A DNA stretch of 64,000 nt from Roseibacillus sp. (lineage in GTDB: Bacteria > Verrucomicrobiota > Verrucomicrobiia > Verrucomicrobiales > Akkermansiaceae): contig JBPOGI010000002.1 in NCBI GenBank assembly GCA_051251855.1, positions 1-64,000 on the forward strand. Reading direction: 5' to 3'. The position numbers are program-made. Shown in pieces: positions 18,001 to 24,000 of the stretch (positions are counted from its first letter, which is position 1; each line of letters opens with the position of its first letter).

Positions 18001-21000
18001 CACGTCAACAAGAAGGCCGCTGACCAGTTCGAGATTCGGACTCATCGCCGTCTCCTCGACATCGTGGACCCAACAGCTCGTACTGTTGATGAACTCAAGA
18101 AGTTGAATCTTCCCGCTGGTGTGGACATCACCATTCAAATCTGACCCACCTACGACAATGGCTTTAGGACTTATTGGAAAAAAATTGGGCATGACCCGCG
18201 TCTTTGATAAAGAGGCAGGCTCCATGATCGCAGTCACCGTCGTCGACGTGACTGGTAATGAATTTGTGCAGACCCGCACCGTTGAGAAGGATGGCTACTC
18301 TGCTGTTCAGATTGGCTATGATGACCAGAAGGAGCACCGTCTCACTGGTGCTGAAAAAGGTCACCTCGACAAGGCAGGTGTTGCACCTAAGAAAAAGCTT
18401 GTTGAATTCCGCTTTGAAGACGGCGCTGAGCTTCCGAATACCGAAGAGGCTCACCCCGGTGCTGGTCTTTTCGAAGACGGAGCCTGGGTCGATATCATCG
18501 GCACAACTAAGGGTAAAGGTTTCCAGGGTGTTATGCGTCGCTATAATTTCCAAGGACAACCTATGGCCCACGGTCATATGATGCACCGCCGAACGGGTGC
18601 CATTGGTGCCGGTTCGACTCCCGGTCGTGTCTGGAAAGGACAGAAGATGCCCGGTCGCCACGGTAACTACCGTCGCACCACACAGAATTTGAAGGTGGTC
18701 CAGAGCCGCCCTGACGACAACGTCGTGCTGATTTCCGGAGCCGTTCCTGGTTCCAAGGGCAGCTACGTTGTCATTCGCCCCGCGCTTAAGAAGTAAGCGC
18801 AAACCGTAAGAATTTAGAAAGGAACGAAGATGGCAAAAACATTGAGTATTGATGAGGCGAAAGCCGCAAACCTCACCCTCGAAGAAGAGGGTCGTGGAAA
18901 CCAGGCAGTGCACGACCTCGTCGTCGCATATCAAGCCAACCGTCGCAGCGGCACCGCGTGTGCTAAGACTCGCGGTGAGGTCTCCGGTAACAACAAAAAG
19001 ATGTTCCGTCAGAAGGGAACTGGTAACGCTCGTCACGGCACCAACAAGGCCCCGATTTTCGTGGGTGGTGGTGTTGTCTTTGGACCTCGTCCACGCAGTT
19101 ACTCCAAGCATGTGCCACGTCAGGTGCGCAAATTGGCTCTCCGTCGCGTCTTGAACGATGCTATCGCTGATGGAAAAATCACTACTGTTTCAAGTTTCGC
19201 CATTGCCGATGGCAAGACCAAGAGCTTCCTCAAGACTGTTGCTGATACCGTTTCTGCTCCAACAGTTCTCGTCGTTGCCAAATCCTTCGACGACAAGACT
19301 TACCTCGCCGCTCGCAACATCAGCTGGGCTCTTCTTGAGACCGTTGATAGCGTCAACATCGAGCAAATCATGAAGTATCAGGCCGTTATCCTCGCGGAAG
19401 ACGCCTTCGAAACCCTCGCCGCTCGCACCGCTTAACCCGCAGTAGAACCCCAAGGAAAATGAAAGACATTTACCAAGTTATCGACACCATCCAGATGTCG
19501 GAAAAAGCCGCTCTCCTGCAGGAGACGAACAACGAATACGTTTTCAAGGTTCACCGCGCCTCTAACAAAATCGAGATCAAGAAAGCTGTTGAAAAGCTCT
19601 TCGCGGTCAAGGTTGAGGACGTTCGCACCTGCAACTACGCCGGCAAGCTCAAGCGCAAGCGTCGTTCCGACCAGGGACGCACCGCTCAGTGGAAAAAAGC
19701 ATACGTCCGTCTTAAAGAAGGGGACTCCCTTGACCTGGTGTAAGTCCATTACACCCGCCTAATTACCTAATAATTTCTAATCCCGTATCGAGATGTCTCT
19801 GAAAACATTCAAGCCCATCACTCCGACCAACCGGTATAAGGAGCACCCTGATTTCGCAGAGGTGACCAAATCTACCCCGGAAAAAAGCCTCACTCGTCCT
19901 CTTAAGAGGTCTGGTGGACGCAACAACCAGGGTCGTATCACCTGCCGTCACATCGGTGGTGGTCACAAGCGTAAGTATCGCGTAATCGACTTTAAGCGTA
20001 ACAAGCGCGACGAAGAAGCAACTGTCATCGGTATCGAGTATGATCCCAACCGCACTTGCCGTATCGCGCTCTTGGAATATGCCGACGGCGAAAGAGCCTA
20101 TATCCTCGCTCCTGTTGGTTTGACCGACGGCGACAAGGTGATTTCTGGCGAAAACGCCGCTCCCAAAGCTGGTAACGCCATGCCTCTTGGCAAGGTTCCA
20201 CTTGGAACAGCGATCCACAACATCGAGCTTCAGCCTGGCGGTGGTGGCAAAGTGGCCCGCTCTGCTGGTCAACAAGCCGTTCTTGCTTCTCGCGAAGGTG
20301 ATAACATTTTTGTCCGCATGCCTTCTGGCGAAATGCGTCGCTTCAACGCGAATGCCTACTGCACCATCGGTCAGGTCGGCAACCGCGACCACATGAACGA
20401 GGTTTCAGGTAAGGCTGGCCGCTCACGTTGGCAGGGTGTTCGCCCAACCGTCCGCGGAATGTGTATGAACCCAGTCGATCACCCCAACGGTGGTGGTGAG
20501 GGTAAGTCCAAGTCCGGTGGTGGTCGTCAGCACTTGAAGTCCCCTTGGGGTCACGTCAAGGGTCAGAAGACTCGCAAGAAGAAGAAGCCTTCTAACACTT
20601 TCATCGTTGAGCGTCGTAAGAAGAAGCGCTAATCCCCGAATTTAACAATTTAGAATCTCTATTTTACTATGCCACGTTCACTGAAAAAAGGACCCTTCGT
20701 TGACCAAAAGTTGCTCGCGAAAATCGATGCTGCTGTTGAGAAAAAGGACAAGAAGCCTATCAAGACTTGGAGCCGTCGCTCCATGATTACTCCGGACTTC
20801 GTTGGTCTCACTTTCTCCGTTCACAACGGGAAAACATTCCTCCCTGTTCTCGTCACTGAGAACATGGTGGGACACAAATTGGGTGAATTCTCACCCTCGA
20901 AGACCTTCAAGGCTCACGGTGGTGTGGGTAAGAAGTAAGAACTGACTTTCAACTGAAATCTCTGCGTAAGAATCCAACCATGACCTTCCGACTTTCCATG

Positions 21001-24000
21001 CCAAACATGCTTGCTGCCCTTCTGGGGATGGCGACGTTGGCGGGTGGTTTGCAGGCTCAGGATTTACGGGGAGAGCTCATCCGCCTTCGTCGCGAAAACA
21101 CCAACCTCAAAGAGAGTTTGGTCGCGGCACAGAAACGCGCTGATGAGAGTTCAGAGAAGCTCGCCGAAATTAACCTTCGCCTCGAAGCGATGGGCTCCGG
21201 TTTACTTGATGGGGGAGAAGACCGCCTCGTCAAAGCCGTCGCCGACCTCGAAGTGATGGCCCGCAAGCTGAAGGAAATCGAAGAGGCCGCCCTCGGACTT
21301 TCCTCCAGCACTCAAAATTACCTTTCAACCGCTATCGCAGCCGACCCCGAAGCCCGGGTGGACGTTGAGACCCGCATTCGCGAGCTCGACACCGTTATTG
21401 GACTGCGTGAAGCACCCCGCAAAGACCGTCAAATGGGCAACCTGCAGATGGCCGAAGTGATTAGTGTCGATTCCGAGTCTGGGATCGTGGTCGCTAATGT
21501 GGGAGATAAAGAATCCGCTGTTGTCGGCATGGCCTTCGAGGTCCGCCGTAATGACAGCAAAGTGGGTGATGCCCTCATCGCGCAAACGCGTGCTGATGTC
21601 AGTGCCCTGTTAGTAATCGATTTAGAAAACGACGAGAACCCCGTGCGCAAAGGCGACCGGATCTCATTTAAACGTAGCAATTAAGGAAGAAGAATCATGG
21701 AAGTCCGCGCGATACACAAATATGCGAAAATCTCGGCCAAGAAGGCACGGGATGTAGCTCGGGAAATTCAGGGCATGCCCGTTTCCGATGCCCTCGACAC
21801 TCTCACCTACACGCCCAAAAAGGCTGCTCTCCTCATCGGAAAGACCCTTAAGAGCGCTGTCGCCAATGCCGAAAACAACCACGAGATGGTTGCCGAGACA
21901 ATGGTGGTCAAGGAAGCTCACGTGACCGATGGTCCGACTTCCCGTCGCTTCAAGCCCCGTGCTCGTGGTTCTGCCGCTGCGATTCGCAAGCGTACCAGCC
22001 ACATCTACATCACTCTTGTGGAAGCTCCTGAAGAAGAGGAGAAGCCCAAAACAGCTAAGAAGGCAGCCAAAAAAGCGGCTCCTAAGAAAGCTGCGGCCAA
22101 GAAGGCTGAAGCTGCTCCTACTCCCGCACCGGTTGCTGAAGAAGCTCCTGCCGCCGAAGAAGCTGCTGCTCCTAGCTCTGACAACCGCGGATTCGTTTAC
22201 GACTCTGCTCCTGACAATGCGGACGACCTCAAGAAGATTTCTGGCGTCGGACCAGCCCTCGAAGAAAAACTTCACAGTTTCGGGGTTTACACTTTCAAGC
22301 AAATCGCCGATTGGACGCCTGAGAACATTGTGGCTTTCGATGACCTGCTTTCCTTTAAGGGACGCATCGAGCGCGACAACTGGCTCGACCAAGCCAAGAC
22401 ACTTCAATCTGAAAACGGAGGTGAGGCGTAGAGCCTCTTTCTCAACACTAACTTTTATTTAACGAACGATTATGGGACAGAAAGTCAATCCAGTGGGTTT
22501 CCGACTCGCATTCAACCGCGACTGGCGGTCGAAGTGGTATGCGCAAGGTGAAGATTACACAACTAAGCTTCACGAAGACCTCGCCGTACGCAAATACATC
22601 AAGGACCGCTTGCAGTTCGCTGCCATTTCCAAAGTCGTCATCGAGCGTGCTTGGAACAGTGTCCGAGTGACCATCCACACTTCCCGCCCCGGTTTGGTGA
22701 TTGGTAAGCGTGGTGCTGAAATCGAAACCATGACCAAGGACATCTCCAAGGTTTGCGGTGGTGCTCAGGTCAAAATTGACATTCTCGAAATCCGCCAGCC
22801 GGAACTCGATGCCCAGCTCGTTTGTGAAAACATCGCCGTTCAGCTTGAGCGTCGTATCAGTTTCCGTCGCGCCATGAAGCGTGCCGTTCAGACTGCCATG
22901 GACTTCGGTGCTGATGGCATCCGTGTCCGTTGCGGTGGACGTCTCGGTGGTGCGGACATCGCCCGTGCCGAGCAATATCGTCAGGGCAAAGTGCCCCTTC
23001 AAACCCTTCGTGTTCCTATCGACTATGGTTTCGCTGAGGCGAGCACCACATACGGTATCATCGGCATCAAATGCTGGTTGAACGTGAAAGAAGAGAAGCT
23101 TAAAGGCGGCCAAGGTGGCGGCCAGCGTCGTGGTGGCCCAGGTGGCGGACGTCGTGATAACCGCGGTGGCGGTGGCGGAGATCGTCGCGGAGGCGGAGGC
23201 CCTGGTGGTGACCGTCGTGGTGGTGGTGGAGACAACCGCGGTGGCGGTGGTGGACCCCCACGCAGCTAGCGAGCCCCAAGACACAGACAATTTTTTTCGA
23301 ACGAACCAAACTTTACTAAGGAGGACCTAAGATATGCCACTCATGCCCAAGCGGACCAAGTTCCGCAAATCACATCGCGGAAGCCGCGCTGGTAACGCCC
23401 AGCGTGGAACAGACGTCAGCTTTGGAGACTTCGGTCTGCAAGCACTCGACCGTGGTTGGATGACCAACCGCCAAATCGAAGCCTGCCGTATTTCCATCAA
23501 CCGTTACCTTAAGCGTAAAGGAAAGGTTTGGATCCGAATCTTCCCTCACAAGTCCACTACTGCACGTCCCCCTGAAACACGGATGGGTAAAGGTAAAGGT
23601 CCAGTTGCAGCATGGGTCGCGGTTATCCGTCCTGGTGCAATGCTCTTTGAGATTGCGGGTGTGCCCGAGTCTCAGGCGAAAGAGGCCATGCGCCTCGCCT
23701 CCAACAAGCTCGGTATTCGTACCCGCTTCGTGGTTCGTGGAAACCACGGCTAATCCCTTACAAATTTAGAAGAAAGACAGTTATTATGGCAGCGATAAAA
23801 GCAAAAGACCTCCGCGAGAAGAGCAGTGAAGAGCTGATCAAGAGCTTGCAGGAACTCAAGGCGGAGGGTGTGACCCTTCGGATCCAAGCGGCCACCGGCC
23901 AATTGGAGAACACCGCCCGCATCCGCACGGTTCGCCGTGAGGTTGCCAAGACGATGACTATCCTGAGCGAGCGTCGTAACCAAGCCTAGTTGACTGAGCA

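Follow-up and report, generated by a model that had tools for sequence, protein, structure and literature searches.

The rpsS-rplV junction and its additional gene

The question raised by this locus is what a non-ribosomal gene does inside the S10 ribosomal-protein cluster, where its place between rpsS and rplV departs, in a way that has gone undescribed, from a gene order that ranks among the most fixed in bacteria. In the window, meaning the whole 64,000-nt stretch of Roseibacillus sp. DNA that was analysed, the order rplB-rpsS-ORF-rplV-rpsC is found on the + strand. The upstream members are rplB (ribosomal protein L2; 19793..20632; Pfam Ribosomal_L2_N, E 1e-34, and Ribosomal_L2_C, E 1e-49) and rpsS (S19; 20669..20938; Pfam Ribosomal_S19, E 4.8e-37). 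After a spacer of 41 nt (20939..20979) comes an intact ORF, running from ATG to TAA at 20980..21684, that encodes a protein of 234 aa, designated P0001. A gap of 12 nt leads to rplV (L22; 21697..22431; Pfam Ribosomal_L22, E 4.5e-35 over residues 5-107; TIGR01044, E 1e-35), which is followed by rpsC (S3; 22472..23269; Pfam KH_2 and Ribosomal_S3_C), whose translation ends in a Gly/Arg-rich tail. The L22 product has its core in residues 1-108, followed by a C-terminal extension of ~135 residues with a Pfam HHH_5 match at 176-213.

The genome-wide survey's note had described a real, non-ribosomal gene between these two spacers, and the present reading of the locus bears this out. In 30/30 order-level relatives, the interval between S19 and L22 holds an ORF of 231-311 aa on the same strand. 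In the relatives, the spacer after rpsS measures 6-42 nt wherever the start could be called without ambiguity, and the gap before rplV is 4-89 nt across 30 loci. Moreover, a homologue without internal stops was present in 30 of 31 related genomes, the only miss being a genome that is 69% complete, so the ORF is more than a product of chance. Its position between S10 genes, on one strand and with short spacers, marks it by location as a cistron of the S10 operon. No promoter-like or + strand terminator-like site was seen in the 41-nt spacer, and consensus matching over positions 20600-22500 of the + strand returned nothing of either kind except one promoter-like match before rpsS. Furthermore, the purine-rich element AAGGAAGAAG (21683..21692) overlaps the stop codon of the ORF, 5-14 nt before the rplV start, and is possibly the ribosome-binding site of rplV.

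Architecture, export and structural relatives

The survey's note had proposed a signal peptide, a helical region and a C-terminal beta domain for P0001. This architecture is recovered both in the alignment of orthologues and in an AlphaFold2 model from a 30-sequence alignment, which is better (mean pLDDT 80.8) than the earlier single-sequence model. Residues 1-26 (20980..21057) read as a Sec-type signal peptide or signal anchor, consisting of R4, the hydrophobic core MLAALLGMATLAGGL and then LQAQ/D, with a putative cleavage site. Residues 27-140 (21058..21399) constitute the helical region according to the model and the alignment; the modelled helices span 11-70, 79-116 and 123-140, and the turns LEAxG and DPEAR are conserved. 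The length of this region varies among lineages from 0 to ~250 residues, and it is missing in the shortest orthologues (108-130 aa, in a family that ranges from 108 to 368 aa). Residues 158-232 (21451..21675) form a six-stranded FlgT-C-like beta-barrel, recognized from the model, the structural match and the alignments, whose strands (158-230) are modelled at pLDDT >90 and which is followed by a variable tail. In 66 aligned orthologues G175 is invariant, and G183, R204 and G225 are each kept in at least 90%. There is strong indication that this barrel, of the FlgT-C or ATPase-crown type, is the conserved functional unit of the protein. Its pI extends from 4.5 to 11.5 across orthologues and is 4.8 in the window protein; the surface charge is thus not conserved and gives no pointer to a ligand. 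The claim that P0001 belongs to no named family also held: no Pfam or NCBIfam match was above cut-off, the only Pfam rows were coiled-coil noise (E 0.02-0.05), and every named homologue is annotated "hypothetical".

The N-terminal features are shared widely. A hydrophobic segment (12-mer, mean Kyte-Doolittle >=1.6) was detected in 68 of 71 orthologues, and K or R precedes it in 63 of the 71. Of the 68 scored, 54 carry a net positive charge ahead of the segment and 57 a neutral or negative one behind it, and in 55 the charge ahead is the higher; this asymmetry indicates an N-in/C-out topology. The stretch free of charged residues is 21 residues long at the median, and Ala-x-Ala-like sites come after it. 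About a quarter of the orthologues, counted by eye, have a Cys close to where the segment ends, but this residue is not conserved. Judged from these sequence features, P0001 is likely to sit outside the cytoplasm, placed there by a Sec-type signal or a signal anchor.

Comparison of the predicted model with known structures gave the C-domain of the Vibrio flagellar H-ring protein FlgT as the best match to the barrel (8z5n chain; Z 11.8, 1.8 A rmsd over 77 residues), 2 Z units over the next group, and in this model P0001 has the six-stranded FlgT-C fold. The other matches were the ATPase and HerA crowns (Z 8.3-9.7), MreC (Z 8.8) and TsaP (Z 7.3). In Foldseek, the top two entries were again FlgT, 8z5n (E 7e-4) and 3w1e (E 2e-3). 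A search of PDB sequences with the family profile placed TsaP first, at E 0.019, over the motif VV.d.G...GV..G..F.I.R. Membership in the FlgT_C family (Pfam PF16538; gathering cut-off 27 bits) is not supported by sequence. A Pfam scan of the window protein gave no FlgT_C row at E up to 1, and a whole-genome search for the family gave nothing at E up to 0.1. FlgT_C is, nevertheless, the commonest weak Pfam match of the orthologues, being found in 5/30 (best E 0.018) and in 9/66 C-domains (best E 0.0024). With the C-domain profile, 6054 cluster representatives were recovered at an E of 0.001 or less. Among 20 multi-domain representatives scanned, 11 carried FlgT_C within the same E limit, and 4 exceeded the cut-off (27.3-43.2 bits). 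That such distant C-domain relatives pass the cut-off speaks for a relation of P0001 to FlgT_C at the superfamily level and not for membership. In one of the FlgT_C-matching relatives the domain is joined to a BlaR1/M56 membrane sensor.

FlgT (PDB 3w1e; LPHT-ring entry 8z5n) has a Sec signal and an extracytoplasmic location, both of which are probable for P0001 too. However, P0001 has neither the N nor the M domain of FlgT, shows a helical region in their place, and is encoded in a ribosomal and not a flagellar context. FlgI was not found in this 95%-complete genome, and hence neither a P-ring nor an H-ring is there to be assembled; a role as FlgT, a three-domain protein acting with the flagellar L and P rings, was rejected because only the C-type barrel is present and FlgI is missing. 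The type IVa pilus secretin-associated protein TsaP (PDB 3jc8) has an FlgT-like barrel and forms a periplasmic ring, whereas P0001 has no LysM domain and a single barrel, and its gene is not grouped with those of a pilus. MreC (PF04085; Z 8.8 for 6zlv and 7.9 for 2j5u) has the layout predicted for P0001, namely an N-terminal membrane or signal segment, a coiled coil and a periplasmic beta-barrel, although MreC has two barrels and P0001 one. No significant MreC row was obtained for P0001 (1/66 C-domains matched, at E 0.024), and the bona fide MreC of this genome lies on contig C1 at 1094868-1095314 (E 4.5e-36). Likewise, P0001 has no OmpH row, and three Skp/OmpH genes (PF03938) above cut-off lie elsewhere in the genome. 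Because bona fide homologues of both exist, P0001 was not considered a stand-in for MreC or for Skp/OmpH. The crowns of F1/V1/A1 and FliI/EscN ATPases and the HerA HAS-barrel have the same barrel topology and are known to pack laterally and thereby keep rings together. Those barrels are found in the cytoplasm, in every case as part of a protein with an ATPase core, and P0001 has no sequence similarity to them. A PVC-superphylum signature protein of the CT421.2 type was also considered. Gupta et al. 2012 (PMC3444138) describe it as small (53 to >80 aa), and it is common to all PVC phyla; P0001 and its orthologues, at 108-368 aa and with a probable signal peptide, were not assigned to it.

Distribution in Verrucomicrobiota and linkage to rplV

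The survey's note had read the gene as a feature of the family Akkermansiaceae, with weaker homologues in a few other Verrucomicrobiota, and this part of it did not survive. The profile of P0001 finds a match in 185 of the 301 phylum genomes, and the gene lies directly before rplV in 87 of the 108 genomes whose rplV upstream region was examined. Of 55 distant profile matches chosen and fetched, 42 (28/40 and 14/15) are directly upstream of rplV; the remaining 13 are paralogues of the same architecture in unrelated contexts. A further 36 loci fetched by the position of rplV contained the gene in 15 cases (8/20 and 7/16). These loci were chosen by hand from related genomes, and the counts do not represent independent events. 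Since the linkage is seen across the entire phylum sample, it must be far older than one family. The gene was absent at the rplV locus in 21 of the 108 genomes, drawn from at least 10 families, and for this reason it is not indispensable to the phylum. In genomes without it the rpsS-rplV gap is ~14-210 nt, and 340 nt in one genome of 0.9 Mb.

In 23 loci neither rpsS nor rplB was present in the ~0.8-1.5 kb fetched upstream, yet the P0001 gene abuts rplV. The upstream neighbours in such split operons belong to 14 Pfam families among the 17 loci with a match, including TatC (twice), TopA (three times), peptidase M20 and LysM. The linkage is to rplV and not to rpsS.

In a weak test by codon adaptation, the P0001 gene scored 0.627 and the 15 ribosomal protein genes around it all scored higher (0.666-0.795), which gives no sign of expression at the ribosomal-protein level. 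In Verrucomicrobium spinosum, a TraDIS report (PMC12283558) gives rpsS as VSP_RS22565 and rplV as VSP_RS22555, with the single tag VSP_RS22560 between them. That gene was scored "essential" with an insertion index of 0.00127, against 0.0108 for rpsS and 0.0154 for rplV. VSP_RS22560 is taken as the P0001 orthologue from locus-tag order and the 30/30 order-level result, not from its sequence. The essential score may also stem from polarity on rplV and later genes.

Possible roles of an exported protein encoded with L22

P0001 is best read as an exported envelope protein made from the transcript of L22. Its function and the sharing of that transcript are predictions, as are the coupling to growth rate and the role in envelope growth or division suggested by the survey's note. 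The explanation favoured here, with modest confidence as a whole, is that of an exported barrel protein, co-transcribed with rplV, that acts as an envelope scaffold or adaptor and goes back to one old insertion. A Sec-type signal or anchor very probably places it outside the cytoplasm, with a stalk or hairpin of variable length ahead of the barrel. The gene would be read with rplV, rpsC and the following genes from one transcript, here that of the whole S10 operon; in split-operon lineages the rplV transcript would begin with it. P0001 would accordingly be made in step with the ribosomal proteins. The most speculative steps are that the barrel serves for self-association or for docking onto a structure of the envelope, by analogy with the FlgT H-ring, the TsaP ring, the F1 and HerA crowns and MreC, and that P0001 is a constitutive periplasmic scaffold or adaptor and not an enzyme. 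The insertion may have occurred once, early in Verrucomicrobiota, the gene being kept beside rplV thereafter with secondary loss in some lineages.

It may instead be that P0001 is functional and exported while its position is a historical accident, a single insertion into a tight and essential operon that was retained since removal would put rplV expression at risk, with any coupling non-adaptive. The codon adaptation below all 15 ribosomal protein genes, the clean losses at 21/108 loci and the same-architecture paralogues in unrelated contexts (13/55) are in keeping with such a passenger. However, across the 23 split-operon loci the upstream DNA has been reshuffled into at least 14 contexts and the gene has never parted from rplV, which exceeds the inertia of one operon; those loci may, in turn, stem from few events. 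This account is regarded as unlikely, if still of some weight. Lower in probability is the idea that P0001 forms a ring or collar in the periplasm that surrounds a trans-envelope conduit, for instance a secretin, in the manner of TsaP or FlgT, and is not a general scaffold. Its nearest folds are indeed FlgT and TsaP, secretin genes are present at five loci of the genome (six Pfam matches) and FlgI is missing, and one family without secretins (f14, 0/5) lacked the gene at rplV in 3/3 genomes examined. Secretins occur, however, in 295/301 genomes of the phylum, which makes their profile almost uninformative, and many lineages without P0001 retain them; the f14 coincidence is a single lineage. 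Moreover, P0001 has no LysM or other peptidoglycan-binding domain and adjoins no secretin gene.

A cytoplasm-facing tether, with an uncleaved anchor and a barrel that binds ribosomes near L22, would agree with the position beside rplV and with the cytoplasmic occurrence of the fold (ATPase crowns and Gar1, Z 7.7-9.7). It is very improbable in view of the charge asymmetry (55/68), the uncharged run of median 21 residues with its Ala-x-Ala-like sites, a barrel that is acidic here (the pI is not conserved), and closest relatives that are periplasmic, one of them fused to the probable extracytoplasmic side of a BlaR1-type sensor. Equally doubtful is a secretion-monitoring leader in the manner of SecM, MifM or VemP, whose state of translation and export would control the rplV cistron and thereby link ribosomal protein output to export capacity. 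In its favour, the gene for an exported protein lies directly upstream of the putatively regulated one in all 87 loci carrying it, with a short gap (12 nt here) and a purine-rich site over its stop codon, and stays the leading gene where the operon is split; in addition, L22 is part of the lining of the exit tunnel, which is where known arrest peptides are sensed. Known monitoring substrates, however, are short-lived and bear a conserved arrest motif at the extreme C-terminus, whereas P0001 ends in a folded, conserved barrel and a variable tail; nor was a conserved RNA hairpin noticed, although no search aimed at one was made. A broader form of this proposal, to which we give only a slight probability, regards P0001 as an exported sentinel whose translation and export upstream of rplV would gate L22 and the following ribosomal proteins, and as the very reason for the organisation of the rplV block. 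Ribosome production in Verrucomicrobiota would then be adjusted to the condition of the envelope or of the export machinery, the reverse of the direction proposed in the survey's note, through a phylum-wide, structured counterpart of SecM, MifM and VemP acting on ribosomal proteins.

Ribosomal-protein operons are known to include non-ribosomal cistrons, namely secY, adk, map and infA in spc and rpoA in alpha, and secY is a precedent for an export or envelope gene in such an operon. Like these, the P0001 gene is a housekeeping non-ribosomal gene kept in a ribosomal-protein transcription unit, in its case a predicted one. It differs from them in lying at the rpsS-rplV junction of S10, in being found in one phylum, and in encoding an exported, soluble-type product of an unnamed family.

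Conservation of a gene at the rpsS-rplV junction

The protein P0001 (234 aa) is encoded by a conserved and intact gene, which is found phylum-wide and is fixed directly upstream of rplV. The rpsS-rplV junction lies within a gene order that ranks among the most invariant in bacteria. In the window, the order rpsJ-rplC-rplD-rplW-rplB-rpsS is followed by the P0001 gene (20980-21684, + strand, ATG to TAA) and then by rplV-rpsC-rplP and more ribosomal protein genes. The gene is separated from the rpsS stop by 41 nt and from the rplV start by 12 nt, and a purine-rich AAGGAAGAAG, read from the + strand sequence, overlaps its stop codon. 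The neighbours were assigned by Pfam to L2, S19, L22 and S3, and the window sequence together with these assignments confirmed the placement and both gaps described in the genome-wide survey's note. That note also found no Pfam or NCBIfam family for the protein, and the present scans agreed, with only coiled-coil noise in Pfam (E 0.02-0.05) and no match in NCBIfam. Moreover, a consensus scan of 20600-22500, in which matches are no proof of function, gave no terminator-like site on the + strand and a single promoter-like match, located ahead of rpsS. We infer that the gene is co-transcribed, and hence co-regulated, with the ribosomal proteins. Its codon adaptation was 0.627, lower than in each of 15 ribosomal protein genes (0.666-0.795), and was unremarkable, at the 64th percentile, in a noisy background of 2559 crude ORFs with 250 aa or more.

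Of 31 genomes of order-level relatives searched, 30 had a homologue free of internal stops, the exception being G011, a genome that is 69% complete, and the matches reached eight families of the order (17/18 in f1 and 12/12 in f2-f8). The loci of 30 relatives, 12 from the homologue search and 18 fetched separately, were compared by tblastn with the window proteins L2, S19, P0001 and the cores of L22 and S3. All 30 showed L2-S19-...-L22-S3 in the same order and on the same strand, as the earlier note had claimed for the position of the homologue in five relatives; P0001 itself was seen by tblastn in 24. The S19-L22 interval held one ORF of 231-311 aa in every locus, with a spacer of 6-42 nt on the 5' side (26 loci whose start call was not over-extended) and of 4-89 nt on the 3' side (30 loci). 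In the alignment of the 30 orthologues (A1), identity to the window protein ranged from 87 to 17%, G175 was invariant, and the conserved C-terminal pattern was V..V......G.VV.N.G...G...GM.F.v.R......A.V.dVR..vSG.......V..GD.

The gene had been regarded as particular to the Akkermansiaceae-type family, and this restriction must be given up: the A1 query matched 185 of 301 genomes sampled across Verrucomicrobiota, and the gene stood at 87 of 108 rplV loci examined, an analyst-chosen sample of related genomes that is not a frequency estimate. The analyst picked 55 of the listed A1 matches and fetched their loci; 42 lay directly upstream of rplV (28/40 in one set and 14/15 in the other), and the other 13 were paralogues elsewhere in the genome. 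The rplV locus was also fetched for 20 genomes without an A1 match. The gene was found upstream of rplV in eight of them with a profile of 66 orthologue C-terminal domains (A2; E 2e-16 to 1.7e-6), and the rpsS-rplV gap was only 14-155 nt in 11. The 340-nt gap at L093, from a 0.9-Mb genome (G142), contained no ORF or homology related to the family; in this reduced genome it could be what is left of a decayed copy. Sixteen further rplV loci comprised seven with the gene and nine without. None of the members examined in families f14, f22, f30, f31, f34, f45, f47 and f62 had it, and it was also missing in some members of f12, f16 and f40. The insertion probably took place once, long ago, and was lost afterwards in some lineages. 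In Planctopirus limnophila, the S19 and L22 tags listed in supplementary file 10 of PMC12283558 are consecutive (Plim_0481, Plim_0482), so that one outgroup genome is without the insertion.

Furthermore, neither rpsS nor rplB was present in the approximately 0.8-1.5 kb fetched upstream at 23 loci, and the gene still abutted rplV. The upstream neighbours belonged to 14 Pfam families over the 17 loci that gave a match, and some were on the opposite strand. TatC (twice) and TopA (three times) recurred; the others included a peptidase M20, a LysM protein, an inositol monophosphatase, an epimerase, iPGM, chorismate synthase, PfkB, GT1, PALP, an Nth-type glycosylase, acetate kinase and a SurA-like protein. 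The operon was therefore broken exactly between rpsS and the P0001 gene, and the upstream part was reshuffled. Of all the observations, this cohesion hints most strongly that the gene is functionally tied to the rplV transcription unit; alternatively, the gene could merely carry the promoter region of that unit. In two f25 genomes (L033, L039), the order was tatA-tatC, the P0001 gene and rplV, all on one strand.

Predicted location and fold of the protein

The N-terminus of P0001 (MTFRLSMPNMLAALLGMATLAGGLQAQ/D) resembles a Sec signal. A set of 71 orthologues encoded directly upstream of rplV was scanned over the first 90 residues with a 12-residue window (mean Kyte-Doolittle of at least 1.6). 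A hydrophobic window was present in 68, with K/R just ahead in 63 of the 71, and the three orthologues without it look like wrong start calls. The uncharged run in the 68 segment-bearing proteins had a median of 21 residues, and net charge was positive ahead of the segment in 54 and neutral or negative past it in 57. These features indicate an N-in/C-out topology, by which the C-terminal barrel would lie outside the cytoplasm irrespective of signal cleavage, and P0001 is accordingly a predicted extracytoplasmic protein. Thus, what the survey's note called a signal peptide stands as a predicted Sec-like hydrophobic N-terminus, which may be either cleaved or kept as an anchor.

AlphaFold2 on A1 (mean pLDDT 80.8) placed helices at residues 11-70, 79-116 and 123-140 and six strands at 158-230, a block with a pLDDT of 91-95. 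Orthologue length ranged from 108 to 368 aa, and the shortest proteins (108-130 aa) consisted of signal peptide and barrel only, which identifies the barrel as the conserved unit. In a Foldseek search of the PDB with the predicted model, the Vibrio LPHT-ring (8z5n) and FlgT (3w1e) ranked at the top (E 7e-4 and 2e-3). Behind them came the N-terminal crown barrels of F1/V1/T3SS ATPases, and MreC stood at rank 43. A Foldseek-independent search with the predicted model aligned the barrel to FlgT in 8z5n with a Z of 11.8 (rmsd 1.8 A over 77 residues), compared with 8.3-9.7 for the ATPase and HerA crowns, 8.8 for MreC and 7.3 for TsaP.

The link to FlgT at the sequence level is weak but consistent. 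TsaP was the best PDB match of the A1 profile (E 0.019). FlgT_C was the commonest weak Pfam match of the orthologue C-terminal domains (9/66) and tied with Leu_zip at 5/30 among whole A1 proteins; it did not match P0001 in the Pfam scan of the protein or in the family search of the genome. In A2, one G was invariant and G, R and G were present in at least 90% of the 66 orthologues. The A2 profile was searched against 1.84 billion representatives and matched 6054 proteins at E <=0.001 and 1142 at <=1e-10, all being cluster representatives at 50% identity. Among 20 multi-domain or repeat-bearing matches that were scanned, FlgT_C was found at E <=0.001 in 11 and above the cut-off in four. In view of the weak FlgT_C matches and this profile bridge, P0001 is filed as a distant, unnamed branch of FlgT-C-like barrels outside PF16538. 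The nearest ESM Atlas clusters were unnamed Verrucomicrobiota proteins, and one Omnitrophota cluster (score 0.78), with FlgT_C on 15% of its members, is a lead only. In one match, P0085 (692 aa), a BlaR1/peptidase-M56 membrane-sensor domain is joined to the barrel, which is present three times, a fusion which suggests that barrels of this type can act as extracytoplasmic sensor or docking modules. The metagenomic protein P0159 (251 aa) was not taken for a barrel-L22 fusion; its barrel continues in frame into the first ~60 L22 residues, after which the frame is lost, probably through a sequencing or assembly frameshift or a poor contig.

Possible roles and outside evidence

On balance we lean towards P0001 being a scaffold or adaptor, which would act by barrel-mediated self-association or docking. 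It is rather unlikely that the gene is a functional passenger held by operon inertia; at the 23 split loci the P0001 gene stayed beside rplV, although these loci may stem from few events. The likeness of the barrel to FlgT and TsaP bears on the possibility that P0001 forms a collar of some specific envelope machine, to which we give a small chance. A flagellar role was rejected because no FlgI was found in the 95%-complete genome, and secretins occurred in 295 of 301 genomes in the phylogenetic profile, so that a TsaP-like role is neither supported nor excluded by profiles. We give very little credence to a SecM-like sentinel that regulates rplV, the gene immediately downstream, and equally little to a cytoplasm-facing ribosome tether, which would require the topology opposite to that indicated by the charges. 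Since MreC and Skp are both present elsewhere in the genome, P0001 does not replace them. Identity with the PVC signature protein was also rejected, the signature being CT421.2, of 53 to >80 aa (PMC3444138).

Henriques et al. (2025; PMC12283558) applied TraDIS to Verrucomicrobium spinosum, in which rplV is VSP_RS22555 and rpsS is VSP_RS22565 (supplementary file 9). The tag between them, VSP_RS22560, was listed as essential in supplementary file 7 with an insertion index of 0.00127, and the indices were 0.0108 for rpsS and 0.0154 for rplV. By our arithmetic, 0.00127 corresponds to one insertion in a gene of 785 nt, a length fitting the family. Judged by the order of the locus tags and by the 30 of 30 order-level relatives, VSP_RS22560 may be the orthologue of the P0001 gene; its essentiality call could reflect polarity of the transposon on rplV and downstream genes. 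These data draw attention to a possibly essential component of the envelope.

The Akkermansia-type protein at locus L071 is identical to ACD04141.1 / B2UMT5_AKKM8 of A. muciniphila, recorded as a 'hypothetical protein'. Among the named relatives of P0001, the nearest comes from Roseibacillus persicicus (82% identity) and is called hypothetical, and all source-given names among the listed relatives were 'hypothetical' or an evident automatic mislabel. One supplementary file of the Akkermansia outer-membrane proteome (PMC4960237) held no S19, L22 or B2UMT5 entry. No description of the protein was returned by a literature search on the S10 operon or rpsS-rplV in Verrucomicrobia, A. muciniphila accessions and PVC signature proteins. 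P0001 defines a large unannotated family, that of the 6054 representatives matching the barrel profile. A stable, phylum-wide gene for an exported-type protein at rpsS-rplV could serve as a genomic marker for Verrucomicrobiota, Akkermansia among them, and is a natural case in which to ask whether the synthesis of envelope and ribosomes is coupled through operon position.

Paralogues and neighbouring ribosomal genes

The contexts of the 13 paralogue loci were heterogeneous and gave no functional lead. The Akkermansia-type genus g3 has two tandem paralogues off the ribosomal cluster (L070:1007-2589, - strand; G213 contig C2, 17342-18855), and most g3 genomes gave two to three profile matches. 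A longer paralogue of f12 (~245-444 aa; L040, L043, L046 and L077) adjoins a TP_methylase-family gene in three of four loci and has a Ppx/GppA phosphatase gene beside it in two of four. Family f14 (G068, G121, G139, G159, G306) was alone in the phylum sample in having no secretin gene (0/5); it was also without the P0001 gene at rplV in the three genomes examined (3/3), which in a single lineage may be coincidence.

In the window, rplV bears a C-terminal extension of ~135 residues (22021-22428, + strand), composed of an Ala/Lys/Pro-rich linker and a helix-hairpin-helix (Pfam HHH_5, residues 176-213). In NCBIfam this extension aligned with the tail regions of fusion-type L21, S2, NuoE and phasin PhaH models, and L22 open frames in other genomes of the phylum ranged from 111 to 383 aa. 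Finally, rpsC (S3) carries a Gly/Arg-rich tail of ~60 residues (23080-23266, + strand) with repeats of a 14-letter type.
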